From the NCBI GenBank assembly GCA_032986305.1, contig GCA_032986305.1_3672.1: 64,000 nt of DNA. One strand, written 5' to 3'. Under the pieces are notes generated by a model. It had not been told where the DNA came from and searched no databases. It worked only from the letters and a program-made list of their open reading frames with translations. The position numbers were made by a program, and so were the translations under genes. Below, piece by piece: positions 2,539 through 62,838 of this stretch. Positions within the stretch are counted from its first letter, which is position 1. Every line of letters starts with the position of its first letter. Source of the stretch: a phage.

Positions 2539-3252
2539 ATGCTGAATACTAAACTGATCGACAACCTGGAAAAACTGTCTCAGCCTGAAAACTACCTTTG
2601 GTCTGCCAACTGGGTGGAAAACTGGAACCGTGTGGCAGCTAAGGTGAAAAAATCATACACACCATTCGAATTACAGCTTAGCTTCATTGAGGAAGAGTTC
2701 AATGAAGTTTTGGAAGAGCTGGAGAAAGGTGATGGTGGAGATCACTTGCTAAAAGAGGCCTGCGATCTTCATGTTGTCACAAGTTATGCCGCTTATCTTG
2801 TTAATGACAATCACGAAAAGTGGTCAAACCTGTTTGATAATCCACGAGGTATTAAGTTCAAGATTGGTGAGTTCTATGATACACTGATCGCTGCGAAAAA
2901 CACCTCTAAGCAAAGAGCGTCTGCTTACCGCTTAGCAGAGTTGTCAACAGCTTTGCTGTTCCAGCTTCGCGGAGATGTGTGCGGGATGATGCGTAAGGTT
3001 CTCAAATCGAATGACAGCAAGTTTGCACGGGTCAACCATCTACGGTATTCACACGGTGCCAGTGCAGATATGCCTGCTGAACAACTCATCGAGTTGGAGA
3101 TTAAAGATCTTGAGCGACGCTTTGATGGTCGATATGAAGGTTTTGTTGCTAAGGAAGAATTCTACAACGGTAATAAAGTTATCATATTCCTTGACAGTAA
3201 AGGTAAGATCATGAAGCCTTCAAGCTTCAAGGATGTAACAGGGTATATTTAA
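2539..3252 (+). CDS. MazG-like nucleotide pyrophosphohydrolase (putative)
   Basis: EEEFNEVLEELEKGDGGDHLLKEACDL resembles MazG E-x2-E ... E-x2-D motif. Confidence 0.5.
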   Translation: MLNTKLIDNLEKLSQPENYLWSANWVENWNRVAAKVKKSYTPFELQLSFIEEEFNEVLEELEKGDGGDHLLKEACDLHVVTSYAAYLVNDNHEKWSNLFDNPRGIKFKIGEFYDTLIAAKNTSKQRASAYRLAELSTALLFQLRGDVCGMMRKVLKSNDSKFARVNHLRYSHGASADMPAEQLIELEIKDLERRFDGRYEGFVAKEEFYNGNKVIIFLDSKGKIMKPSSFKDVTGYI

Positions 3253-3258
3253 CAACAT

Positions 3259-3285
3259 AGCCGGGATCACCCGGCTTTACTTGTT
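3259..3285 (+). terminator. intrinsic terminator
   Basis: AGCCGGG-atca-CCCGGCT hairpin followed by T-rich tail. Confidence 0.5.
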
Positions 3286-3624
3286 GTGGAAAGTATGCAA
3301 GTGAGGCAGATAGTTATGTACAAGCACTCTAGAGATCTTGAAAACGATGCTGTGTTTGGGGATCAGATGAAAGAGTTGGTTAAACTCATAGGCAGGATAG
3401 AGGATAAGTTTGACACTAAGATCTACATCGACAGCAAAGTATTCAACCACAAAATATGGACAAATCTGTGTGTTGGACTACATGGAGATAAAGATGTTGT
3501 AAATTTAGTTGTAATTAAGTTCATAGTGTGGCAGAATAAGACTATACGTTATTCCGATCCACACTTACTTGTTTATCCTATAAAAGACCTACTACAGAAA
3601 GAGGACTGCAATGCCGTTATTTAA
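3286..3624 (+). CDS. hypothetical protein
   Basis: 112 aa ORF, co-oriented. Confidence 0.4.
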   Translation: MESMQVRQIVMYKHSRDLENDAVFGDQMKELVKLIGRIEDKFDTKIYIDSKVFNHKIWTNLCVGLHGDKDVVNLVVIKFIVWQNKTIRYSDPHLLVYPIKDLLQKEDCNAVI

Positions 3625-3880
3625 TCTTGCTAAACCTGTAGAAGCCCACCAGTTTGACGGAAGCTCTTCATCAGTATCTGATCTGCAACGGTGGATTGAT
3701 ACAGGTGTGTTTACATCGTCACCTGTTCGGACCAGAGATCTTCGTCGCATGTGTGAGCTTGTCGAGCCTTTTGGTAACCTTGTCTTGTACCAAGGAGATT
3801 GGCTAGTTGACTTTATGGGAGACTGGTTGGTAATGAGTAAAGAAGAGATGTTTAAAATTTTTAAGGAAGAGGCCGAGTAA
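3611..3880 (+). CDS. hypothetical protein
   Basis: 89 aa ORF; stop overlaps ligase start (TAATG). Confidence 0.4.
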   Translation: MPLFNLAKPVEAHQFDGSSSSVSDLQRWIDTGVFTSSPVRTRDLRRMCELVEPFGNLVLYQGDWLVDFMGDWLVMSKEEMFKIFKEEAE

Positions 3881-5163
3881 TGCATCAAATCAAAACAACA
3901 CTGTACGCACTGAACAAAGATGGCAGCTACCAACAGTGGAAAGTATTCACTGATGGCGAAAAGGTTATCGTAGAGTTTGGCAAGCTTGACGGTAAATTGC
4001 AGTACAAAGAGACGGTATGCACACCTAAGAACGTAGGTCGTGCCAATGAGACTACAGCTGAGCAACAGGCCGAGCTTGAGGCTATCAGCAAGTGGGAAAA
4101 ACAAGTCCGTCTGGGGTATGTTGAAAACATGGAAGATTGCGAGCAGGGTGTTGATCTTTTACCCATGCTGGTGCATGACTACCTGAAGCGTGGCAAGGCA
4201 CTTAAACTACCTTGCTGGATCTTGCGTAAGTTAGATGGCCTTCGTCTGCTTGTTGTTTTCCAAAATGGTGAGCCTAAATTTATTTCCCGTGGTAATAAGT
4301 CCTACCCTATTCAAGGAAAGCTTTTAGAGCAACTTCGTTCTTTCCATTCTACCACTGGGATTAAACAACTTGATGGGGAACTATACATTCATGGTCTTCC
4401 TTTGCAGAAAATAGTGTCTCTTGCTAAACGGTGGCGAACACAGGAAGAGATTCAGGCCGAGATCGATAAAGACTATGAGGCAGATAAAAAACGCCGTCAT
4501 ACCGCAATTAAGGCAGGCTTATCAACATACAAAAACTTCAACAAGGTAGATATTCCTGTCGATGTTGAGCCTGTTCGTGATGATTTGCGTTACGGTGGGT
4601 ACTGTAGCTACGATCTTGAGTATCACATTTTTGATATTCCTAGCGACAAGGTGTGGTGGGATCCAGAAACAGAGTCTGGACGCTGCAAGGATCTTATGGA
4701 TGCAGAGGATACCGTTACCACTCTGATGCTTGACCATATCAAGGTTGTTGACGCAGAGCTTGCGTACACAGTTGATCATTGCGAAGAATCTGTTGGTATA
4801 TTCATGTCCGAAGGATATGAAGGTACTATCATGCGTAATTTCTGCGGTAAATATGAGTATGGTCAGAGAACATCTGAAGCATTGAAATGGAAAAAGTTCA
4901 ACGACGCAGAGGTGAAAGTTATTGACGTTGAGAAAGATAAGAATGATGAAGGTGTTCTTATCTGTGTTGACAAGGAAGGTGTTGTTGTTAAAATGAAGAT
5001 GAAAGGCACGCACGAGGAGCGTAGCTATGACAGGATGCAGGAAATGATCGGCAAGTTTGTCACCTTCAAATATCAAGCAAGGACAGAAGACAACAACTAC
5101 CAATTCCCTGTCGGTATCTGCGTCCGAAATGTTAACCCAGACACTTGGGAGGTGCTGGAATAA
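3880..5163 (+). CDS. ATP-dependent DNA ligase
   Basis: 427 aa; nucleotidyltransferase motif I KLDGLR; EGTIMRN motif; resembles recalled T7 gp1.3 layout. Confidence 0.7.
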   Translation: MHQIKTTLYALNKDGSYQQWKVFTDGEKVIVEFGKLDGKLQYKETVCTPKNVGRANETTAEQQAELEAISKWEKQVRLGYVENMEDCEQGVDLLPMLVHDYLKRGKALKLPCWILRKLDGLRLLVVFQNGEPKFISRGNKSYPIQGKLLEQLRSFHSTTGIKQLDGELYIHGLPLQKIVSLAKRWRTQEEIQAEIDKDYEADKKRRHTAIKAGLSTYKNFNKVDIPVDVEPVRDDLRYGGYCSYDLEYHIFDIPSDKVWWDPETESGRCKDLMDAEDTVTTLMLDHIKVVDAELAYTVDHCEESVGIFMSEGYEGTIMRNFCGKYEYGQRTSEALKWKKFNDAEVKVIDVEKDKNDEGVLICVDKEGVVVKMKMKGTHEERSYDRMQEMIGKFVTFKYQARTEDNNYQFPVGICVRNVNPDTWEVLE

Positions 5164-5316
5164 TTTAGGTATGCTTAGTAGATAACGGTAGCCAATTGAA
5201 TAAGTGTTTTCAATTTGCACCTACATATACCCTGATGTATGCACTGTGCAACCTAGCCACACCACACAGTGGTGCTGATCGGGGCCTCGTTATGAGTGAA
5301 CTGGAGAGTATGAAAA

Positions 5317-5787
5317 ATGAAACTTGATAAAAATGTTCAACGAAAAGCTTTCTTGGATATGATCGCATATTCGGAAGGCACAGATAATGGTAGACAACCA
5401 ACTAAGGATCGGGGATACGATGTCATAGTTGGTGGCAAGCTGTTTAGCGATTACAGCAAGCATCCAGGTGTGTACGTTAAGCTAAATGCTAAACTTACCT
5501 CCTCCGCTGCTGGGCGTTACCAGGTTTTGGAGAAGTTTGCTAAACACTACATGGAACAGTTAGGATTGCCAGATTTTGGCCCTGCCAGTCAGGACAAGAT
5601 TGCGTTGCAACTGATCCGTGAGTGCAAGGCTCTCTCCGACATTGACGAAGGGCGTATCCACGAGGCTATCCATAAATGCCGTTCCCGCTGGGCTTCGTTA
5701 CCTGGTGCTGGATATGGTCAGCATGAACAGAAGATCGAGAAGTTGATCGAGGTGTTTAAAAAGGCAGGCGGTGTTGTCCTTGATTGA
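5317..5787 (+). CDS. endolysin, lambda R-type lytic transglycosylase
   Basis: QRKAFLDMIAYSEGTDNGRQ...GYDVIVGG...RWASLPGAGYGQ closely matches recalled lambda R. Confidence 0.85.
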   Translation: MKLDKNVQRKAFLDMIAYSEGTDNGRQPTKDRGYDVIVGGKLFSDYSKHPGVYVKLNAKLTSSAAGRYQVLEKFAKHYMEQLGLPDFGPASQDKIALQLIRECKALSDIDEGRIHEAIHKCRSRWASLPGAGYGQHEQKIEKLIEVFKKAGGVVLD

Positions 5788-5850
5788 TCATTGACATAAC
5801 CACACGGACGTGGTATTGTTACCTCATAAAATGTTTAGCAGGGTTTAACC

Positions 5851-6057
5851 ATGAAAGATTTTCTGTTGGCAATTTTGTTCATGGCAGCATGTCTGGCCTG
5901 TGGTGTCGTGTTTGCAGGTGAAACAGCGTATCTTGTCGATGTATATCGGGACAATGGTAAACGTATTTGCCTTTATGAGACAAGTCAAGGTGAGCTCTAC
6001 GAGCTTGTGAAACAAGGCGAGGCTGGATCTTGTCCTCGCACCCATTTCTTTGAATGA
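5851..6057 (+). CDS. small secreted or lipoprotein (possible spanin-like)
   Basis: 68 aa; hydrophobic N-terminus with lipobox-like LAC; immediately downstream of endolysin. Confidence 0.4.
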   Translation: MKDFLLAILFMAACLACGVVFAGETAYLVDVYRDNGKRICLYETSQGELYELVKQGEAGSCPRTHFFE

Positions 6058-6066
6058 GGAGAATAC

Positions 6067-6531
6067 GTGGAAGACGGACGTTTAATGAAGTCTGAACGCA
6101 GGCTTATTGTGCAACTGATCCCAGAAACAGCTTGGTATAATAACCTCCGAAACGCTGTGAAGAAGAGTGAGTGGGATAAGATCCGTAAGAAGTGCTACAG
6201 AGAAGCCAACTACACTTGTGAGGTGTGCGGAGGCAAAGGCAGCAAACACCCTGTGGAGTGTCATGAACTTTACACTTTCGAAGAGGGAGTGATCCGGCTT
6301 GTCGGACTGATAGCGTTGTGCCCGGATTGTCACACATCGGTGCATCCTGGGTTAGCAAATATCCGTGGGAAGTATGCTCAGGCAGTTAGTCAGTTAGCTA
6401 AGGTGAATAAGATCACCAAGGGTATGGCGGAGGCCTATTACCGAGACTGCTTTGCAGAGTGGCGTGAGCTTAGTAAAGTTCCAGAATGGAAGACTGACTT
6501 TTCGTGGATAGAGGGTTACCTTGATGGCTAA
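6067..6531 (+). CDS. HNH-like nuclease domain protein (putative)
   Basis: CEVCGG...H...CPDCH metal-finger pattern; GTG start at 6067 or ATG at 6085. Confidence 0.4.
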   Translation: MEDGRLMKSERRLIVQLIPETAWYNNLRNAVKKSEWDKIRKKCYREANYTCEVCGGKGSKHPVECHELYTFEEGVIRLVGLIALCPDCHTSVHPGLANIRGKYAQAVSQLAKVNKITKGMAEAYYRDCFAEWRELSKVPEWKTDFSWIEGYLDG

Positions 6532-6814
6532 GAAACCTGTAAAAGAGAAATTTGATAAGACAGCTTTTGTATTCGATACACCTTTGGACGATATCATCAG
6601 AGGTATGCAAGACTTGTATCGGAAGGCTGAATCTGAGCAGCTGTCAGAATCAGAGCTTTACTGGTTGGGTTGGTGGGAGCTTAATCTACCTAAAGCTGAA
6701 AGATCTGATCTAAAAACCGTTAAAACGTGTGCCCAAGAAAATGCTGCACTTGGAATTTACCACAAAAGAAAAAGATCAACAAAAAGCTCTCCAAGAAAGA
6801 CTAAAAAGTCTTGA
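6521..6814 (+). CDS. hypothetical protein
   Basis: 97 aa ORF, basic C-terminus. Confidence 0.4.
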   Translation: MMAKKPVKEKFDKTAFVFDTPLDDIIRGMQDLYRKAESEQLSESELYWLGWWELNLPKAERSDLKTVKTCAQENAALGIYHKRKRSTKSSPRKTKKS

Positions 6815-6840
6815 CAAATGAGTCTCTGATCTGATATTAT
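6811..6840 (+). promoter_or_regulatory. sigma70-like promoter
   Basis: TTGACA - 18 nt - TATTAT. Confidence 0.4.
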
Positions 6841-6873
6841 CAGTTAACTATTTATTAACTAGGAGAACTAGGT

Positions 6874-7182
6874 ATGCTTAAAATTTTTATTGTTGAAGAT
6901 AAAGATATCGTCCAGTTGTATGCAAATGAGAATCACAAAGGTATGATTCTGAAGAAGGCAAAAAACCTTCATGAAAACACAATTCAACCGGGTGATGTAA
7001 TTAAGATCTGTGGTTATATGATACCAGACTCCTTGATGAAAATAACCCACCACTGGGGGTCTAATCCGTTCCTTTTTGAAAAGTATTGGGATGTTGAGTC
7101 ACTTATTGCAGAGAGTGATGATGCATTTCATTACAGCATCCAACCATCTTGCAGAATAACTAACAGGAGGGGCTTTGAGTAG
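6874..7182 (+). CDS. hypothetical protein
   Basis: 102 aa ORF with RBS AGGAGAA. Confidence 0.45.
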   Translation: MLKIFIVEDKDIVQLYANENHKGMILKKAKNLHENTIQPGDVIKICGYMIPDSLMKITHHWGSNPFLFEKYWDVESLIAESDDAFHYSIQPSCRITNRRGFE

Positions 7183-8314
7183 AGAATATCCACTTATTGA
7201 ATCTGTAGATTGTCTTGCTGATCTTCTCGAACCTGACGCTATAGTTTATTATGACTTCGACCAGGTTGCATATCAAGCTGCGGCAAGTTGTGAAAAAAGG
7301 ACAATTGAGGTAACACACAAAGCCTCCGGACGCAAGAAGATGTTTAAAACACGAACAGAGTTCTGGGGGCGGCAGAAAAACACCGTTGGTGGTTGGTTAA
7401 AAGCTGAGAATACCAACCGTGAAGCCGCATGTAAAAAGGCTGGAAAGGAGTTTATTCCGTGGACACGCGAAGATTTCGATGTCTTGGATATCCAAACCCC
7501 TGATCCTGTAGAGAACTGCTTACACACAATTAAGTGTAAAGCTAATGCAGTTCTTAACTATCTTGGTATTCCGGAAGAGCGATGTGTCGGGGTGTTGGGA
7601 GGCACAGGTAACTTCAGACTAGATCTTCCAATGCCGGAAAGATACAAAGCCAACCGTAACAATACTCTTCGACCACTGCTGCTTGGAGATGCAAGACAGT
7701 ATCTCCAAAAGCAGTATAATGCTCAAGTGATCAACGGTATCGAGGCTGACGACTGGTTAGCTATCCAGCAATTTGAAGGTTGGAACCACTACCAAAAAAC
7801 AGGAAAGTTCAACAAGTTTATTATCTCTATTGATAAGGACCAAAGAACACTACCGGGGCTTGTGTTCGATCCTATGCGAAACGATAAGGGAGATTTTGTA
7901 AGGGAAACCCCTATGCTGATCGATAACGGTATGGGGAACATCTTCATGAAGCCTAATGGAGAGGTTGGTGGTTACGGAATGCTGTTCTTCGGATACCAAA
8001 TGCTGTGTGGTGACTCTGCTGACAATATCAAGCCGTATCAAGGACTTATCGGTAAGGGTAAGTTCGGGGATGCCTCAGCATTCTACCTACTGTCTCAGTG
8101 CAGCACTCCAAAGGAGATGTGGGTGGCTATTATTGATCAGTACAAGAAGTGGTTCCCGAAAGGTGTTGTTAAGTACACTGATTTCAATGGTATTGATCGT
8201 AGAATTTCCGTAGGTCAATGGATGAGTATAATTTTTGACTGTTTGTATATGAAGCGAACATTCAATGATCAGACAAAACTTGTTAACGTTCTTAGAAATG
8301 TTGGAGCAATTTGA
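7175..8314 (+). CDS. 5'-3' exonuclease / flap endonuclease
   Basis: IEADD and GDSADNIKP motifs typical of FEN/Pol I 5' nuclease family. Confidence 0.7.
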   Translation: MSREYPLIESVDCLADLLEPDAIVYYDFDQVAYQAAASCEKRTIEVTHKASGRKKMFKTRTEFWGRQKNTVGGWLKAENTNREAACKKAGKEFIPWTREDFDVLDIQTPDPVENCLHTIKCKANAVLNYLGIPEERCVGVLGGTGNFRLDLPMPERYKANRNNTLRPLLLGDARQYLQKQYNAQVINGIEADDWLAIQQFEGWNHYQKTGKFNKFIISIDKDQRTLPGLVFDPMRNDKGDFVRETPMLIDNGMGNIFMKPNGEVGGYGMLFFGYQMLCGDSADNIKPYQGLIGKGKFGDASAFYLLSQCSTPKEMWVAIIDQYKKWFPKGVVKYTDFNGIDRRISVGQWMSIIFDCLYMKRTFNDQTKLVNVLRNVGAI

Positions 8315-8646
8315 TGACTAAAAATTCTGTAGATAGTGCAATTATGGAAGCTGTTTTTGAGGATGATCATACAACAGGGACCATTAAAACAAAAAATACA
8401 TTTATTGTTGCCACAGGTATGTGGCGGTTGTATGAAGATGACACTATTGCATACATCTTGTATACTGATGATTACGCAGATGATCGTGTATGGTCTGCTG
8501 TTTTAAAAGAGGATTGTGAGCTGATTGAGGGCGAGCGGTTATGCATGTTCACCAGTGTGGAAACAGATGTTAAGCTTTGCTCTCTCGTCTTGTTCAAAGA
8601 TAAGGCTTATGCTCCTGATGAAGGAGAGGAGGATGAGGAAGCATGA
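8311..8646 (+). CDS. hypothetical acidic protein
   Basis: 111 aa, ATGA overlap with upstream gene. Confidence 0.45.
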   Translation: MMTKNSVDSAIMEAVFEDDHTTGTIKTKNTFIVATGMWRLYEDDTIAYILYTDDYADDRVWSAVLKEDCELIEGERLCMFTSVETDVKLCSLVLFKDKAYAPDEGEEDEEA

Positions 8647-9272
8647 GAGAGCGCCTATTATCCATAGACCAGTCGTTGACACACACAGCTTGCGTTGTAT
8701 GGGACGATGGAAAGCCTGTTCATAAGGTTGTGTTACGAACTCAAAGCTCATCTGCAAAAGAGAAGAAACCAGGGACGGTTTCTTTTGCAACAGCTGCTGA
8801 GCGTATTGACTGGATCTGCAAACAGGTCAGATATTATATCCACACGCACGGAGTTGACACCGTGGTTATGGAAGGGCTTTCCTTTGGATCACGCGGAGAT
8901 GCCACACGTGAACTGGCCGGGTTGTTTTACGGTCTTGAAATTATGCTTTGGGATGCCTTAGCTGATTGTGAAAATGACGGCCTGTTTAAGGTCCACACAG
9001 TGACACCAACAACTGCCAAAAAGTTTGCTCGCAGTCATCTTCCTGAAGAACTTGCTTTTGAGGAGAAGAAAAAGCTTGACAAAAAGACAGGTAAAGAGCA
9101 TACTGTGAAGAAACCTGTTACAATGGATAAAAAGTTGATGGTTAAGGCCTGCGAAGTATCTGAACCGGGGTTCCTAGACGGGATCAATTTGGTACAAGGT
9201 AAGGCCGATCTCGCAGATGCTTATTGGATAGGCAGGGCTCATCTGGAGGGATTATCGCAAAGCGTAAAATAA
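8643..9272 (+). CDS. RuvC-like Holliday junction resolvase (putative)
   Basis: N-terminal LSIDQSLTHTACVV and VVMEGLSFGSRGDA resemble RNase H-fold resolvase acidic motifs. Confidence 0.5.
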   Translation: MRERLLSIDQSLTHTACVVWDDGKPVHKVVLRTQSSSAKEKKPGTVSFATAAERIDWICKQVRYYIHTHGVDTVVMEGLSFGSRGDATRELAGLFYGLEIMLWDALADCENDGLFKVHTVTPTTAKKFARSHLPEELAFEEKKKLDKKTGKEHTVKKPVTMDKKLMVKACEVSEPGFLDGINLVQGKADLADAYWIGRAHLEGLSQSVK

Positions 9273-9829
9273 GAAAGAAAGCTGTCAAAGCCCCAGTTCA
9301 TAACGGGTGGTTAAAAGATTCTAAGGACATAGCCAACTTTCGAAAAGAATTGTCAGAGGAGCAGGATGGTCTTGATCCGATCTTGTGCGAGCCACTTCGT
9401 AAGCCTTGTTTAGATCATGATCATCTGACTGGTCGTTGCAGGGGTGTTTTGTCTCAGTGCACTAATACCTTTGAGGGGTATGTGCTTAAATACTGGATGA
9501 AATACTGTAACGAGTATACAGATTGCAGTTTATCAGAGGCGTTGCGCCGGATGGCTGACTATTTGGAGAAAGACTACAGCGACTTCCCGCTCCACAAAAA
9601 CTACAGAGATGATATGACAAAGTTCTTGAGGAGATGCTCTAAAGCTACGATTATTGCACGAGCAGAATCAGATCTCAATCTTGTCATTAATCCGGAGTGC
9701 ACCAAGCATGAGGCTATTGAGTTCTACATGCAGGAGTTTATAAAGAAAACTGAGGAGAGAGATTTCTATGGGGATGAAAAAGGTATTCAATCCTTGCGAC
9801 TCAGTCCTGATCAGGATGAAATACCGTAA
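9224..9829 (+). CDS. endonuclease VII-like HNH protein
   Basis: CLDHDHLTGRCRGVLSQCTN matches recalled T4 endo VII CVDHCHKTGKVRGLLCNRCN; exact start uncertain. Confidence 0.6.
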   Translation: MDRQGSSGGIIAKRKIRKKAVKAPVHNGWLKDSKDIANFRKELSEEQDGLDPILCEPLRKPCLDHDHLTGRCRGVLSQCTNTFEGYVLKYWMKYCNEYTDCSLSEALRRMADYLEKDYSDFPLHKNYRDDMTKFLRRCSKATIIARAESDLNLVINPECTKHEAIEFYMQEFIKKTEERDFYGDEKGIQSLRLSPDQDEIP

Positions 9830-29442: not shown

Positions 29443-29679
29443 ATGAGTATAAATGTTGTGTTAATAGGTTACCTGGTAATATCCGTTATAACAGCGGTAT
29501 TCTTGACAGGTATATGCATCGTGTCCAGACGAAGGGTGAAGTTTGATGATTTTATCACCATCATCACTGCTGCACCTTTTTGGCCTGTTGTTATCTTCAT
29601 AGTGATAATGTGTCTGGTTGATTACTACAAGAATATCCGTAAGGAGAAAAAGGAGAGTAGAGATGGATACCGCACCTAA
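29443..29679 (+). CDS. small membrane protein
   Basis: Two hydrophobic helices, basic C-terminus. Confidence 0.4.
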   Translation: MSINVVLIGYLVISVITAVFLTGICIVSRRRVKFDDFITIITAAPFWPVVIFIVIMCLVDYYKNIRKEKKESRDGYRT

Positions 29680-29815
29680 AACTATCTATGCTGTTCTTAA
29701 AGAGATTGCGTTCTACGCAGATCTTAGCAAGGCACCTTTATGGGAAAAGAGCATGTATTTAAAATGGTGCGTTAATTTAGGGAGACCTTCTAGTGTTTCA
29801 AGCCATGTTTATTGA
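29663..29815 (+). CDS. hypothetical protein
   Basis: ATG after RBS AGGAGAG. Confidence 0.3.
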   Translation: MDTAPKTIYAVLKEIAFYADLSKAPLWEKSMYLKWCVNLGRPSSVSSHVY

Positions 29816-29898
29816 GATGCTATCCGGGGTATTGTTACTGGTAGCCATCTTAGGTGGTGCAGTTCTGATGTATAACTATCTTGAAAAAGGAGACAGCA

Positions 29899-30084
29899 AT
29901 GGTAAAAAATAAATCTTTAGAGCAGGCTGAAAACCTTCTCCACGAGCTGGTAAAGGAGTGGAAAGTTGAATACTCAGATTTTAATGCACGAGAGGGTGAA
30001 GATTATTGGCCTACGGAGCGCTCAGAGGGAGAGTGGTATCAAGATTTTATAGAATGGCTATATCAGACGTGTGATGAGGGGTGA
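29899..30084 (+). CDS. hypothetical protein
   Basis: ATG after RBS AAAGGAGA. Confidence 0.4.
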   Translation: MVKNKSLEQAENLLHELVKEWKVEYSDFNAREGEDYWPTERSEGEWYQDFIEWLYQTCDEG

Positions 30085-30086
30085 CG

Positions 30087-30542
30087 ATGTTTGTTAAATA
30101 TGTAAAAACGTGCCTCAACAATCTTGGTAGAGAGCATTGGTACACCTTGCTTGAAAAAGGAGAAATTTTAACAAAATCTGGAAAGATAACTTTGATACCC
30201 TTGGACGATAAAGATCCGTCACTACTTATCATAGATGATTACGTTACAGGTGTGTCGTACGAGGTCTCTGTGGAGAGGTTAATACGTAGATCTGGAGGTC
30301 CTTATGACCGAAGAGAGTATGTTTTCGATTCTGTTACAGAGAAGGAAGATCCGTCTCTAATGTTTAGGATGGTAATCAGGGATATGAAATCATCTATAAA
30401 TAGGATCGTAAAGGACATTAAGGAGCCTTTTAGGGTAAAAGTTAAGAAGTTTTTTGATTCTAAGATTAACATACTTGCCGTTGTGCTAGGCGTAATTCAA
30501 CTTCTGTTAATTTTGCACTATCTTGAACTGTTGTTTAAGTAG
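30087..30542 (+). CDS. hypothetical protein with C-terminal TM helix
   Basis: 151 aa; C-terminal ILAVVLGVIQLLLIL. Confidence 0.4.
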   Translation: MFVKYVKTCLNNLGREHWYTLLEKGEILTKSGKITLIPLDDKDPSLLIIDDYVTGVSYEVSVERLIRRSGGPYDRREYVFDSVTEKEDPSLMFRMVIRDMKSSINRIVKDIKEPFRVKVKKFFDSKINILAVVLGVIQLLLILHYLELLFK

Positions 30543-30602
30543 CGTGCAATAAGGCACAAAGGATGTGCCATAATTAAATAGGTTAAGAAAGAGGTAGAGA
30601 GA

Positions 30603-30968
30603 ATGACAAATATTAAATCGATATTAAAATGGGTAGCTGCTATGGGGCTGGTAACCGTCGTGGCTTTTATAGGGTACTGGGTTTGGGAAACTGAATTAAA
30701 AGATATCGGATATACCAGTCTTGAGAGCAAGGCGTGTATTGGCATAACCGATGCATTCAGGCAAAATGCCATGGATCACGAATGTGTCGATGCAGATATA
30801 GATGAGAAACTGTCTAAGGACAAAGATTTTTACCATGGTCATGCCTTGCTTGATAGTGGTGACACTGTAGAATTCTGGTCGTGGTTCCGTGAAGATGGAA
30901 CAATAAAGACAGCAGTAAAGATTTCCAACAAAGAGTTAATGCTGTTGCAGCAGAAGGAGGTGCAATGA
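30603..30968 (+). CDS. hypothetical protein with N-terminal signal anchor
   Basis: RBS GAGGTAGAGAG; hydrophobic N-terminus. Confidence 0.45.
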   Translation: MTNIKSILKWVAAMGLVTVVAFIGYWVWETELKDIGYTSLESKACIGITDAFRQNAMDHECVDADIDEKLSKDKDFYHGHALLDSGDTVEFWSWFREDGTIKTAVKISNKELMLLQQKEVQ

Positions 30969-36800: not shown

Positions 36801-37064
36801 ATGAACATCCTGATGTGGGTTATAGCAGTGGCGTTTGTTGCATGTTTTTGCTGCTGGGTTGCGGTGAGGATTTCTGTAGCTACCCTTCGGAAGTTAGGGT
36901 TCTCAGAATGGGATATTAATATCCTTTCTTTTCGCAATGAGACAATATCAGCCGCCCTGCTTTGTAAGAAATTCAAGTGGGAACCTTGTGAGGTCATGAA
37001 CTATCTAAGAACTGGAGATATCCCTGAAAGATTTAAAAAAGTTCTTGACGGTAAGGATAAATGA
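36801..37064 (+). CDS. small membrane protein
   Basis: N-terminal hydrophobic helix ILMWVIAVAFVACFCCWVAV. Confidence 0.4.
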   Translation: MNILMWVIAVAFVACFCCWVAVRISVATLRKLGFSEWDINILSFRNETISAALLCKKFKWEPCEVMNYLRTGDIPERFKKVLDGKDK

Positions 37065-37219
37065 TAGTATAGTGACTAACAAGAGGTGAGGAATGACAGA
37101 TTTTACTGAAGCTTTAATGATGGCCTTGTCTGTTTTAGCGCTATCGGTGTGTTTTGGGGCGTTATTCACATCTCTGGTTAAAGTTTTACATACAGTATTA
37201 TTACCCAAGGAGCGCAGTA

Positions 37220-37471
37220 ATGACGAAGATTGACTTGAATGCTGGCGACCATGTTGTTGTCAAATGCATCGGAGATTATCTTGGATTCACAATCGGCAAT
37301 ACTTACGAGGCGGTAGTGGCGAAGGTTTATCATGATAAAGTCCTCAGTCTTGTATTTGACTGCGATGATGATGGGGATGACCGATACGTTTGTGAGGTGC
37401 TGGCACGAGACGATAGTGAAGACCAGAAATTCCTGGTTATTGAACTGAACGGTATTTTTGTAGAACGTTAA
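37220..37471 (+). CDS. hypothetical protein
   Basis: MTKIDLNAGD..., 83 aa. Confidence 0.4.
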   Translation: MTKIDLNAGDHVVVKCIGDYLGFTIGNTYEAVVAKVYHDKVLSLVFDCDDDGDDRYVCEVLARDDSEDQKFLVIELNGIFVER

Positions 37472-42696: not shown

Positions 42697-42831
42697 TTAA
42701 AACCAGTTGCCAACCGTTTCCAATAGATCACTGACTATCAGGACAATACTGATCAGCACATACCTAACCATAAAGGGAAAGATCGCCAACATTGCCGCCA
42801 CGATCCCTATGGTGATAATTATCTTTCTCAT
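42697..42831 (-). CDS. small membrane peptide (44 aa)
   Basis: MRKIIITIGIVAAMLAIFPFMV...; co-oriented, below ORF-track cut-off. Confidence 0.3.
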   Translation of the reverse strand: MRKIIITIGIVAAMLAIFPFMVRYVLISIVLIVSDLLETVGNWF

Positions 42832-42921
42832 GTTTTTGTATTCTCTTTCTGTTGCGTTCAAGGCGGTCACCGCCGCCTGCTTATGCTTTGTTAGTTAATG
42901 GGGCGTACGGTATAGATTAAA

Positions 42922-43146
42922 CTATGCTGTACGCTCAACTATAACAACGGCTTGAGGGATCTCACCTTCCACCACTATCAAGGCTTTTTTCTGCGTGATA
43001 GATATCTTTACCCGCTTCAGCGTGGCGGTAAAATCTTTCATTTCGTCACGTGGTGTTTTAGTGCAATACCAGATCTCAGGCTTACCTATTTGCAAGCCGC
43101 GTAAAAATTCCGTTTTGCCTGTTTTGTTCGTGATCATTTGTTTCAC
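42922..43146 (-). CDS. hypothetical protein
   Basis: 74 aa ORF. Confidence 0.4.
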   Translation of the reverse strand: MKQMITNKTGKTEFLRGLQIGKPEIWYCTKTPRDEMKDFTATLKRVKISITQKKALIVVEGEIPQAVVIVERTA

Positions 43147-43324
43147 CTTACCCGATACCGTGGGGAGATAGGATCATGTTAGCCATAGTTGCAACCACTC
43201 CAACCGATAATGCCATGCCAACTACTACAACCGTGAAAATTTTTTCTAACATGATTCCACCCTCATTAATGGGCGTTGCCTTATTGCCCCGCCCTATGTC
43301 GTACACTTTTCTTCTGATCCTCTG

Positions 43325-43588
43325 TTAGCATACGATAGCGATCACGCCGCCACAAATAAAAGGTAAATCAAAACGGTCTACCTTGCAAGCTATTTTTAAA
43401 CGAAAGGCAACATAAAAGAAAAGTTGCAAACAATCGATCATTGTGTTAGCTGTTGAAACACTGCCAGCATTAAACACCACCCCGCCCACGGCGTTAAACG
43501 TTGCGTTACTCACGAAAGCGAAAAGGCAAGCGATCACGGTGGCGATCATGATGTTGCGTTTTGTCAATCTGTAAATGATGTTTTTCAT
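43325..43588 (-). CDS. small membrane protein
   Basis: 87 aa with hydrophobic segments. Confidence 0.4.
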   Translation of the reverse strand: MKNIIYRLTKRNIMIATVIACLFAFVSNATFNAVGGVVFNAGSVSTANTMIDCLQLFFYVAFRLKIACKVDRFDLPFICGGVIAIVC

Positions 43589-45390: not shown

Positions 45391-45589
45391 CACCCCGGAA
45401 GAAAAATTTTTTTGAAAAAAGTTAGGCCCCCAGGGATCGGGGGCCGTTATCAGGTGCGTACAGCGATAAAATACATCCCTACGCCTAACAATATTTCAAG
45501 GGCGATAATCTCCAGCCATACCATAACACGGCGCGCCTTATCGGTGCGGGGCTTATCCTTGGGTGTCATCGTCTCCCCCTTTCCTCCTG

Positions 45590-45811
45590 TTAGTAGTGAC
45601 GTGGTTTACAATGGTCCCCAGGAGTACTATCGCCACGCACATTACGAGAAAAATTATTTCTTCCGTTGTTCGGTCCATTGTTATAAAACCTCTCAAGATC
45701 AGGTCTAAAAGTAAATCTTTCGTTATTGAATCCGTCACGCCAGGCGGCTGGCTTCAAATCTTCACTAAATGGATTAATTAACGTGGCATTATTTAAACGG
45801 TTGGCCCACAT
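45590..45811 (-). CDS. hypothetical Asn-rich protein
   Basis: ATG after RBS GAGGA; 73 aa. Confidence 0.3.
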   Translation of the reverse strand: MWANRLNNATLINPFSEDLKPAAWRDGFNNERFTFRPDLERFYNNGPNNGRNNFSRNVRGDSTPGDHCKPRHY

Positions 45812-46160
45812 ATTTTCTATTCCTCTCAAATAGGCGATCCGCCTCAGTTAAACATATCTCATGGGCGTGATCTCTGGTTTTAGCTTCATCGAAAACCTGT
45901 TGTGCAAGGCTGCAACGTAGGGAGACTGGAAGATCACTATAATAGGCGTTGACAAACGTTTGAGCGTCGTACAGGTCTGAAAATACTTTACCCTTTCTAT
46001 TATTTCCCTTGTCAACAATTGCAAGGATAACCAATACAATAGTTGCAACCACCCCCAGGAAAATAGATATAATAAACCATAAAAAGGCGGATCTCCCCAT
46101 CTTGCCAGCGATCCAGGCGTTAAACAAGGCAACCAATATAGCCAAAATAATAAATTCCAT
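45789..46160 (-). CDS. membrane protein (two TM helices)
   Basis: MEFIILAILVALFNAWIAG...FLWFIISIFLGVVATIVLVILAIV. Confidence 0.45.
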   Translation of the reverse strand: MEFIILAILVALFNAWIAGKMGRSAFLWFIISIFLGVVATIVLVILAIVDKGNNRKGKVFSDLYDAQTFVNAYYSDLPVSLRCSLAQQVFDEAKTRDHAHEICLTEADRLFERNRKYVGQPFK

Positions 46161-46224
46161 TCTATGTACCTCTTTTACAGTTCTGATTAACAATAAGGCG
46201 GCAAATATGCCGCCTGTTACCTGA

Positions 46225-60414: not shown

Positions 60415-62838
60415 ATGGTAATAAATAATACGACGAACACCTTCATCGTACCACCCACGCTTCACCATTTGGTGGTGCATGAGTATCCCAACTAAGTCAC
60501 ACAGCGATGCACCACCATTCTGTTGGTATGCATTAAGTAAAGAGTGTTTAGATCGGGTCCAGATGGCATGACCATCAAAAGAGTAGATAAACTTCTTACC
60601 CGTTGCTTCCCAGAATTTCTCCAGATCCTCTTTACGCCCCTTAAGACCAGGGTTGGCATCCCAAAGTGCATCGATTACCCTTTGTCCCAACTCTGGAGAG
60701 ATGTCCAGCATATCTGCAACTTTATCTTTTTGTGCCCCGTACATAACCCCATACGTGATAGGTTTACCGTCGTTACGGGACACCTCTCTGCCTGCTACTT
60801 TTGTATATGCCTCAGCATTGTTTTGGTGTGCGTCTCCGTTACTTACAACATCGTAATACAGGCCGTTGTCGAACTCAAAGGCACCCCAAGCCCCGATAAG
60901 CTGCTCTAAGTTGGACCCGTCGATACCGATCTCAAAGTATCCTGGAGGAACACCCCACAAGCTACGCATCTCTTTACCCATAACCACTTTAGGAGAGGGT
61001 TTAGGCATGTTTGCACAAATACTGTGTTTCTGTCTGGAAGTGTTTGTTAATCCAGAGCTTTTAGCAGGAAGCTTATGGTCAATCTTCAAGCGTGGGTGAT
61101 TAAGAAGACCAGTATCAACCTTATCCTCCTTGATCGGATCAAGGACCGATCTGCGGTTTCGCAATGATAACCACAAGACGATATCTTTAGCCATCTCTCC
61201 GTTCAATTTTTCAAGATTCGGACATAGGTGTCCAAACGTATCTTTCAGTTGCGGAGAAGTAATAAGTGCCCTAGCTTTTCTACGTATTTTCCTGAATACT
61301 TCCTTTTTAATCCTTTCGGAGTTAGGAAAGCTTCGGAACTTGTGCACAGTTGTCTGGAACTTAGCATCAGTTTTGTTCCAGAAGTTGATAATTAGGTCAC
61401 AATACTCTGACTCCAAAAGCTCGTCCATATATGCATATACTCGTGCATCAACATCTGCATCAGGTAAAGCTTTCTTCTTGCTGTCTTTAGTTACATCCTT
61501 AGTTCTCCACATTGTCGGAAGCCAGCCAGCACTGATCAGGTATCGCTTAATGTCGTCCTGGTTGCTGATTTTCATAGGTATCTTGCAGTCCGGCATTCGC
61601 TTCTGCTGTAGATCACTTATTGCCTGATCCATCAACTCTTTAGGTAAAGGGTGTGGTGTGGAAGTGCCCTTAATATAGCCTCTCAAGAAATCAGCCATCT
61701 TATCGGGGTCTTTGCATCCCATCTCTTCACACCATTTTATCCCCATCTTGCTGACATCTCCTGTAGAGGTAAATGCTCTCTTAGGCGGGGCTTTGAACTC
61801 TAAAGCGCTCATGTCTACAGGATATCCAAGCTTATCTTTTAACCATTTCCAACCATTATTAGAGATTGTCCCGTCTTGGTTAAACGGCTTTTCAGGGAAC
61901 TTGGGCCGCTGAGACATTGACAGCTCTTTTAAAGGCAGTTGTGGTTCAACACGATCAGCGATTTCTTTCATCCACGCATCGCAACGGTCACGTAAAGCAA
62001 TAGCTCCATCTATGTCGAAATATACGCCCTGACGGGCCTGCAGCTCCATCAGGAAGTGCTGCAGCATACCTCGGCGCAATGCGTTCTTCCAGGTGATCTT
62101 CTTGAACCCTTTTGGCTTCTCTTTGGCAGGATCGTACATAAAGTTCTGCATGTCAGATTTGCCGTAGAATACACCTTTTGATTCCGCTACCAGCTCTTTC
62201 CAGAGCAACTCCTGGATGATAACGTCCTCGAATACACGATCCACATACTTCCACAACGGAAGATCGCGCCAGTCATCAATTTGAACTTTCTGGTTACCAA
62301 GGGCGTAGCCCCATGCCATAAGGCCGTGAGGACCAACAGGCTGCATTTTCTTAGTAACCGGGTTGAATACAGCGTCCGGACAACCTTTTGGTAAAGGGCG
62401 ATCAGGCCACAAGATTCGGCTCATCGCCAACGTATCAAACAGGTTAACCTGGTGGTCGTTGATAGTCCCCATACATTTAGGATCACGGAACATATCAAAA
62501 TGAATACCGGATAATCTCTCCATCAGCATAAAGTCATAACTATAGCAGTTATGGCAGTTCAAAGCTGTTGGTGACCAGTCGGAATTGCCTGTAAGCCAAC
62601 CTTCCAACTCCGAAAAATCTGCTATGCGAACTTCAAAATCTTTATAAAGAGCTTTCTTTGCCAGAATAAAGTTCTTAGCCTTCTCTATATCCTCCTCGGA
62701 GTAGTGTGTGCGGTCATTTAGAGGGAGGAACAGCATAAAACGGTTCTTATTCAGCTCTTTAAACAGGCCGCAGTGATAATAAAGATCTGGGTCTTCCAAA
62801 AGCCCGGAGGCCTCAAAATCGAAGCTATACATGCTCAT
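60415..62838 (-). CDS. DNA polymerase (family A, T7 gp5-like), exon 1
   Basis: N-terminal exo FDFEASGLLEDPDLYYHCG like T7 VSDIEANALLESVTKFHCG; motif A GIDGSNLEQL; motif B RNDGKPITYGVMYG. Confidence 0.8.

Follow-up and report, generated by a model that had tools for sequence, protein, structure and literature searches.

What is an endolysin gene doing among genes for DNA metabolism, with no holin gene at its side, and does the small gene that follows it, whose product begins with a hydrophobic stretch, belong to the lysis machinery? The question is raised by positions 5317-6057 of a 64,000-nucleotide stretch of phage DNA (GenBank assembly GCA_032986305.1, contig GCA_032986305.1_3672.1), which is referred to here, in its full length, as the window. 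Very probably, the locus encodes an independent, holin-dependent endolysin followed by a Sec-exported periplasmic mini-protein, rather than a lipoprotein or spanin, in a genome whose lysis genes are dispersed. The endolysin and its separation from the other genes of lysis, the location of the spanins beside the terminase gene, and a holin that is unidentified or only proposed have already been published (PMC3606486, PMC6139136, PMC6658697, PMC7344957), and because this layout has been described for rV5-like phages, the finding is largely ordinary. The modest addition made here is a description of the 68-aa product of the second gene, with its predicted signal peptide and disulfide, and of its distribution outside Vequintavirus.

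Genomic setting and identity of the endolysin

The window is part of a Vequintavirus (rV5-like) genome, with ~97% nucleotide identity to JES2013, LL12 and Murica. Bases 4500-7500 matched 129 phage records, led by Escherichia phages JES2013, O157 typing phage 4, LL12, Murica and their relatives; these best nucleotide matches are full-length at 96-98% identity, and all belong to Vequintavirinae/Vequintavirus, rV5-like myophages of ~136 kb. Position 1 of the window corresponds to position 66302 of LL12, and the two genes recur in the same order, at ~97% nucleotide identity, as gp89/gp90 of rV5 and gp90/gp91 of LL12. The published annotations of these two phages leave the 68-aa protein blank or call it 'hypothetical' or 'putative membrane protein'; nothing substantive differs. 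Some 20 GenBank entries with the name 'Campylobacter phage' (MG0656xx; C. jejuni as host) likewise share ~96% identity with the window, and it looks as though their host label is doubtful or the lysates were contaminated.

Both ORFs (156 and 68 aa) were confirmed at the coordinates given in Table 1. Because a ligase, an HNH endonuclease and an exonuclease gene are their neighbours, the pair sits within a DNA-metabolism region, where the first-pass annotation had placed the endolysin; endonuclease VII lies further along, according to the gene order of LL12. An Rfam search of 4800-6600 returned no RNA family.

Table 1. Features of the locus and of the dispersed lysis genes. Coordinates are window positions, except those of the two LL12 genes, which refer to the LL12 genome. 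TMD, transmembrane domain.
Feature	Coordinates	Strand	Remarks
DNA ligase	3880-5163		neighbour of the endolysin/68-aa pair
Endolysin, 156 aa	5317-5787	+	soluble, lambda R-type (GH104); = rV5 gp89, LL12 gp90
Putative sigma-70-type promoter, extended -10	5791-5819	+	TTGACA-N17-TATTGT, TG before -10
68-aa precursor ORF	5851-6057	+	= rV5 gp90, LL12 gp91; PHROG 4641
Predicted signal peptide, residues 1-22	5851-5916	+	MKDFLLAILFMAACLACGVVFA; predicted signal-peptidase-I cut after VFA
Mature domain, 46 aa	5917-6057 (incl. stop codon)	+	GETAYLVD...GSCPRTHFFE; two invariant Cys (C40, C61)
HNH endonuclease	6067-6531		directly downstream of the 68-aa gene
Two small genes			between HNH endonuclease and 5'-3' exonuclease; no assigned function
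5'-3' exonuclease	7175-8314		neighbour gene
111-aa ORF	8311-8646		no assigned function
209-aa ORF	8643-9272		phage I29 counterpart annotated 'ribonuclease H superfamily protein'
Holin candidate, 78 aa	29443-29679	+	two TMDs, K/R-rich C-terminus; rV5 gp129 homologue
Cluster of small membrane-protein genes	29443-30968		78 aa with two TMDs; 39 aa with one TMD; 121 aa with N-terminal TMD; 153 aa with C-terminal TMD (PHROG 'virion structural protein'; mass-spectrometry evidence in rV5)
Further small TMD proteins	36801-37233, 42697-43588, 45450-46193		
LL12 o-spanin gp65	60847-61134	-	starts MRVATLFIVCLLLCGC, then ATS; LLCGC lipobox
LL12 i-spanin gp66	61131-61529	-	N-terminal TMD

The first gene encodes, by its predicted activity, a lytic transglycosylase of the lambda R type, as the first-pass annotation had recognized. 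A phmmer search paired its product with lambda lysozyme (PDB 1AM7, E = 3.6e-56; 3D3D, E = 4.8e-56), residues 4-154 aligning with residues 3-153 of 1AM7 at 93 identical positions out of 151 (61.6%), and the protein also matches PHROG 90 'endolysin' (3.4e-56). Within the conserved SEGTDNGRQ motif, Glu20 pairs with Glu19 of lambda (AYSEGTD vs AWSEGTD), the catalytic residue of lambda lysozyme. The counterparts in the records of related phages are annotated as endolysin or lysozyme, and rV5 gp89 was named 'lysin (lysozyme)', with PF00959 recorded for it in 2013 (PMC3606486). A 2025 copy of Pfam-A gave no family at E <= 0.01 for either of the two proteins, and NCBIfam gave nothing meaningful for them; in the case of the endolysin, the missing Pfam match was ascribed to the copy of the library and not to the protein. 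Such silence on a 62%-identical homologue of lambda R is a caveat for the annotation of GH104 endolysins by Pfam only.

The enzyme has the same length as lambda R and, like it, is predicted to be soluble, without a signal and dependent on a holin. Its maximum 19-aa hydropathy is 0.42, which leaves no SAR, signal or other hydrophobic segment, and because it has no such segment it would need a holin lesion to reach the cell wall. The endolysin would accumulate in the cytoplasm and wait there for a holin encoded elsewhere. The two genes differ in their surroundings, as R of lambda lies in the S-R-Rz/Rz1 cassette under a late promoter, whereas the endolysin gene of the window stands by itself in a DNA-metabolism block, unlinked to the holin and the spanins. 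No convincing sigma-70 promoter was found in the 153-bp gap upstream of the gene (5164-5316), and the 'late promoter' motif of rV5, TGGTAAAATA, is absent upstream of it even when one mismatch is allowed. This gap carries an indel in LL12 and several other relatives, which splits their nucleotide matches in two.

Dispersed spanin and candidate holin genes

Among the annotated genes of 3000-9500, no two-TMD holin adjoins the endolysin, as had been noted on first inspection, and a hydropathy scan of this interval found a transmembrane-like segment in only one annotated gene, the 68-aa ORF; every other hydrophobic ORF overlaps an annotated gene, either out of frame or on the antisense strand. The description of the rV5 genome names gp89 as lysin, reports no holin homologue and lists gp129 as a putative holin (PMC3606486). 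The gp129 homologue in the window lies ~23.6 kb downstream of the endolysin, is 91% identical to rV5 94058-94291 and has the sequence features of a holin (small size, two hydrophobic segments and a charged C-terminus); it is the only proposed holin, and it is treated here as a candidate. Small membrane-protein genes cluster around it, and more of them occur further downstream (Table 1). Any of these products could be the true holin or a regulator of lysis.

For LL12, the endolysin (gp90), the i-spanin (gp66) and the o-spanin (gp65) have been published, with the holin not identified. Kongari et al. (2018; PMC6139136) grouped rV5, JES-2013 and FV3 in a family of 'separated' two-component spanins, and in CB7, rV5 and PVP-SE1 the spanin pair adjoins the gene for the large terminase, with no lysis cassette (PMC7344957). 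The LL12 pair lies immediately upstream of TerL, ~5 kb to the left of the window, and a tblastn search of the window with gp65 and gp66 found no spanin homologue, the best E being no better than 0.3. The lysis genes are not clustered: the endolysin is at 5317 and the holin candidate at 29443, and the spanins, encoded by the opposite strand in LL12, lie ~5 kb beyond the left end of the window. A search beyond the locus does lead to a spanin pair and a proposed holin, but these are scattered and form no canonical cassette.

Such a dispersal of lysis genes, with the spanins beside the large terminase and the holin candidate far downstream of the endolysin, resembles that of T4, in which the genes for the endolysin (e), the holin (t) and the 'separated' spanins (pseT.3/pseT.2) likewise occupy separate loci. 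The proteins themselves differ between the two phages: e encodes a muramidase of the T4-lysozyme type, whereas the endolysin of the window belongs to GH104, and holin T combines a single TMD with a large periplasmic domain, whereas two TMDs are present in the putative rV5 holin.

Predicted signal peptide, mature domain and promoter of the 68-aa gene

The 68-aa protein matches PHROG 4641, a family of unknown function (4.4e-28). Across 120 Vequintavirus records its identity is 95-100%, with the rV5 protein at 100%; diverged alleles (63-87% identity) occur in metagenomic Vequintavirus contigs, and homologues of 31-41% identity in Serratia phage ChuuTotoro, Salmonella phage SSBI34 and other contigs. 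The record of SSBI34 cites Cronobacter phage CR8_243 as a relative. A profile search of 1.84 billion representatives added ~5 small secreted homologues, the other matches being spurious repeat proteins. Judged by these sequences, rV5 gp90 is a member of a small family of predicted secreted mini-proteins with two cysteines that extends across Vequintavirinae.

In the window, the protein has one strong hydrophobic segment, at the N-terminus (residues 4-22; 19-aa Kyte-Doolittle mean of 2.74), which the first-pass annotation had read as a signal or lipobox-like sequence, possibly of an outer-membrane spanin component. In an alignment of 17 family members, this segment is free to diverge while the next 46 residues are strongly conserved, and all 17 carry, in the same alignment columns directly before the conserved domain, a small residue in position -3 and Ala or Ser in position -1 (VFA/G, TFA/G, SFA/G, VRS/G, AWS/G, AWA/G, AQA/S, AEA/A, AEA/S, SYA/G, ARA/T, ASA/S and AHA/G, cut at the slash). 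The family thus combines a basic n-region, a hydrophobic h-region and small residues at -3 and -1, the features expected of substrates of Sec and signal peptidase I. A diverging hydrophobic segment with a fixed -3/-1 site before a conserved domain is characteristic of Sec signal peptides that are cleaved, and we infer that the 68-aa protein is exported by Sec, with a predicted signal-peptidase-I cut after Ala22.

A lipoprotein processed by signal peptidase II was also considered for the 68-aa protein and rejected. No member of the 17 has the strict lipobox [LVI][ASTVI][GAS]C towards the end of its h-region, and a relaxed, PROSITE-like pattern occurs in four, which are the closest alleles, at Cys14 (FLLAILFMAAC in the window allele); under the PROSITE rule, a lipobox Cys at position 14 stands one residue too early. 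Cys14 and Cys17 of the window allele recur only in the closest alleles and are missing in 13 of the 17 members, and the signal region of eight members lacks Cys altogether. As a control for the scan, the LL12 o-spanin gp65 shows LLCGC. Because the window allele fits the relaxed lipobox, the protein may conceivably still be lipidated in the window's own lineage. In a metagenomic variant of 90 aa (P0004), the signal peptide is replaced by an out-of-frame ORF that starts at 5784 (5784-5921, +1) and is fused to the mature domain; this fusion is most likely an indel, an assembly error or a pseudogene.

The mature peptide would have a mass of 5.3 kDa and a pI of 4.9, with a single proline. T25, L28, D30, Y32, C40, Y42, C61 and P62 are invariant in 14 sequences that range down to 26-41% identity, and a disulfide between C40 and C61 probably stabilizes the domain. 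AlphaFold2, run with a shallow alignment, modelled the 68-aa protein with a helix at its N-terminus and with four beta strands (mean pLDDT 78.7; means of 10-residue blocks 78-93 over residues 21-68). Foldseek with this model found nothing in the PDB at E <= 0.001, and generic small beta-barrel or OB-like fragments at E > 0.01, and a fold search of BFVD gave significant matches only to the protein itself and to uncharacterised phage mini-proteins. No match came from a comparison of the family profile with PDB sequences or from Pfam searches with all family members.

The gene appears to have its own promoter of the sigma-70 type. The putative site, in the 63-bp gap between the two genes, matches the consensus at 10 of 12 positions, and it has already been catalogued in rV5 as promoter P090 (Table S4). 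TTGACA and the -10 element are retained upstream of the divergent alleles in L003, L005, L006, L010 and L012 despite differing spacer sequence, and in ChuuTotoro and SSBI34 a terminator-like hairpin lies immediately 5' of the homologue of the 68-aa gene.

Relation of the two genes and the possible role of the 68-aa protein

In ChuuTotoro, SSBI34 and three metagenomic Vequintavirinae-like contigs, the homologue of the 68-aa gene is found in the syntenic early region that runs from the ligase to the exonuclease, and no homologue of lambda R occurs within its flanks of 3.5-5 kb; MazG-like, Band_7, PinA-like and NADAR genes are among the neighbours of the distant homologues. This comparison of gene contexts leaves out the most divergent homologues, P0017 and P0019, whose contigs are short. 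The alleles of the two genes also recombine independently, as phage EduardKellenberger (L010) has an endolysin that is 66% identical to that of the window next to a 68-aa protein of 98.5% identity, while in L006 the corresponding values are 83% and 62.5%. Because of its own putative promoter, its distant homologues without a nearby endolysin and these uncoupled alleles, the 68-aa gene seems to be functionally independent of the endolysin. At the same time, the pair stays adjacent in all relatives of the Vequintavirus type, even where the exonuclease is upstream of the pair (L003-L006), and this conserved adjacency could hint at a functional link. Because the genes are kept together in these genomes, a modest probability is retained for a role related to lysis.

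Among otherwise near-identical Vequintaviruses, the endolysin gene is mosaic, with 61-83% aa identity to the window allele (L010 4947-5426, L003-L006 3459-3938), and such a divergent endolysin may be accompanied by a 68-aa gene with 98.5-100% identity, as in EduardKellenberger and V18. Several relatives carry a gene for an HNH homing endonuclease beside the pair, on its upstream side in L005, L006 and L010; in the window, the HNH gene is on the downstream side. Together, the flanking HNH genes and the mosaicism suggest an allele replacement associated with homing.

The form that a role in lysis would take is that of a periplasmic regulator tied to the endolysin, either an inhibitor that would neutralise lambda R-type enzyme leaked from the cell or coming from outside, or an antiholin like RI that would sense the state of the periplasm. 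Besides the conserved adjacency, the predicted periplasmic location of the 68-aa protein speaks for this possibility, and the presence of rIIA/rIIB homologues in rV5 makes a T4-like control of lysis conceivable. It is nevertheless unlikely, as the distant homologues have no lambda R endolysin nearby, the alleles of the two genes recombine independently in EduardKellenberger, L006 and V18, and the sigma-70 promoter would separate the 68-aa gene from co-transcription with the lysis gene. Moreover, the proposed holin, to judge from its sequence, has almost no periplasmic domain with which a partner of the RI type could interact, and searches of PDB, Pfam and folds detected no similarity of the 68-aa protein to RI, Sp or known lysozyme inhibitors.

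The remaining alternatives concern the N-terminus. If it were not cleaved, the protein would be a signal-anchored type II protein of the inner membrane, perhaps resembling a holin or antiholin with one TMD; the hydrophobic stretch of ~19-20 residues, rich in Ala, Gly and Cys and somewhat SAR-like, would allow this, and several GenBank records say 'putative membrane protein'. The -3/-1 motif at the domain boundary in every aligned member and the freely diverging hydrophobic segment argue against an anchor, as does the lack of the charged cytoplasmic tail of holins, and such a protein is quite improbable. A holin proper was rejected, since the only hydrophobic segment looks like a signal that is cleaved off, and what follows is an acidic domain with a predicted periplasmic location. 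Least credible of all is an outer-membrane lipoprotein that serves as an o-spanin or o-spanin-like lysis component, and the spanin proposed at first inspection is not borne out. The position of the gene directly after the endolysin and the relaxed lipobox fit of Cys14, preceded by F-M-A-A, are in its favour, and LL12 gp65 and the 68-aa protein are both small with an N-terminal export signal. However, gp65 has its lipobox and directly follows an i-spanin gene, whereas the 68-aa protein has no conserved lipobox, the Cys being present in only four of 17 family members, and its gene in the window has no adjacent, overlapping or embedding i-spanin gene, its neighbours being the endolysin upstream and the HNH endonuclease downstream, with no gene for a type II membrane protein close by. 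A bona fide i-/o-spanin pair already exists next to TerL in rV5-like phages, and the 68-aa protein shows no sequence similarity to the o-spanin of the rV5 family. O-spanins are proline-rich and extended, whereas the mature part of the 68-aa protein has one proline and a compact predicted beta fold.

The cleaved, Sec-exported mini-protein remains the preferred reading. Its gene would be transcribed from the promoter in the intergenic gap, probably early, and its product would leave the cytoplasm through Sec; signal peptidase I would then cleave it after Ala22 and so release an acidic periplasmic beta-protein of 46 residues, probably with one disulfide, C40-C61. A literature search found no described function for this family in Vequintavirinae. 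Because of the predicted export, the host-type promoter and the place among early and host-takeover genes, it may be guessed, tentatively, that the mini-protein acts as an early periplasmic factor of the envelope, for example in superinfection exclusion or in protection against lysis from without. Sp (spackle) and Imm of T4 are early, envelope-located superinfection-exclusion proteins. The 68-aa protein shares with them a small size, a predicted destination in the envelope and a gene located among early ones, and differs in that no similarity of sequence or fold to them was detected, so that they offer an analogy for its role only. About as doubtful is the broader proposal of a new family of secreted, disulfide-bonded periplasmic effectors of ~46 residues, conserved across Vequintavirinae and expressed from their own host-type promoter, that would act in superinfection exclusion or modulate the envelope or the timing of lysis, and whose gene Vequintavirus would have come to retain beside that of the endolysin.

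For the biology of lysis these results have little consequence. Their practical value lies in a correction of annotation, in that the 68-aa gene should be described as encoding not an o-spanin, a lipoprotein or a 'membrane protein' but a predicted secreted periplasmic mini-protein. Since phage therapy and biocontrol products make use of rV5-like phages, an early secreted factor with a possible role in superinfection exclusion is worth attention.
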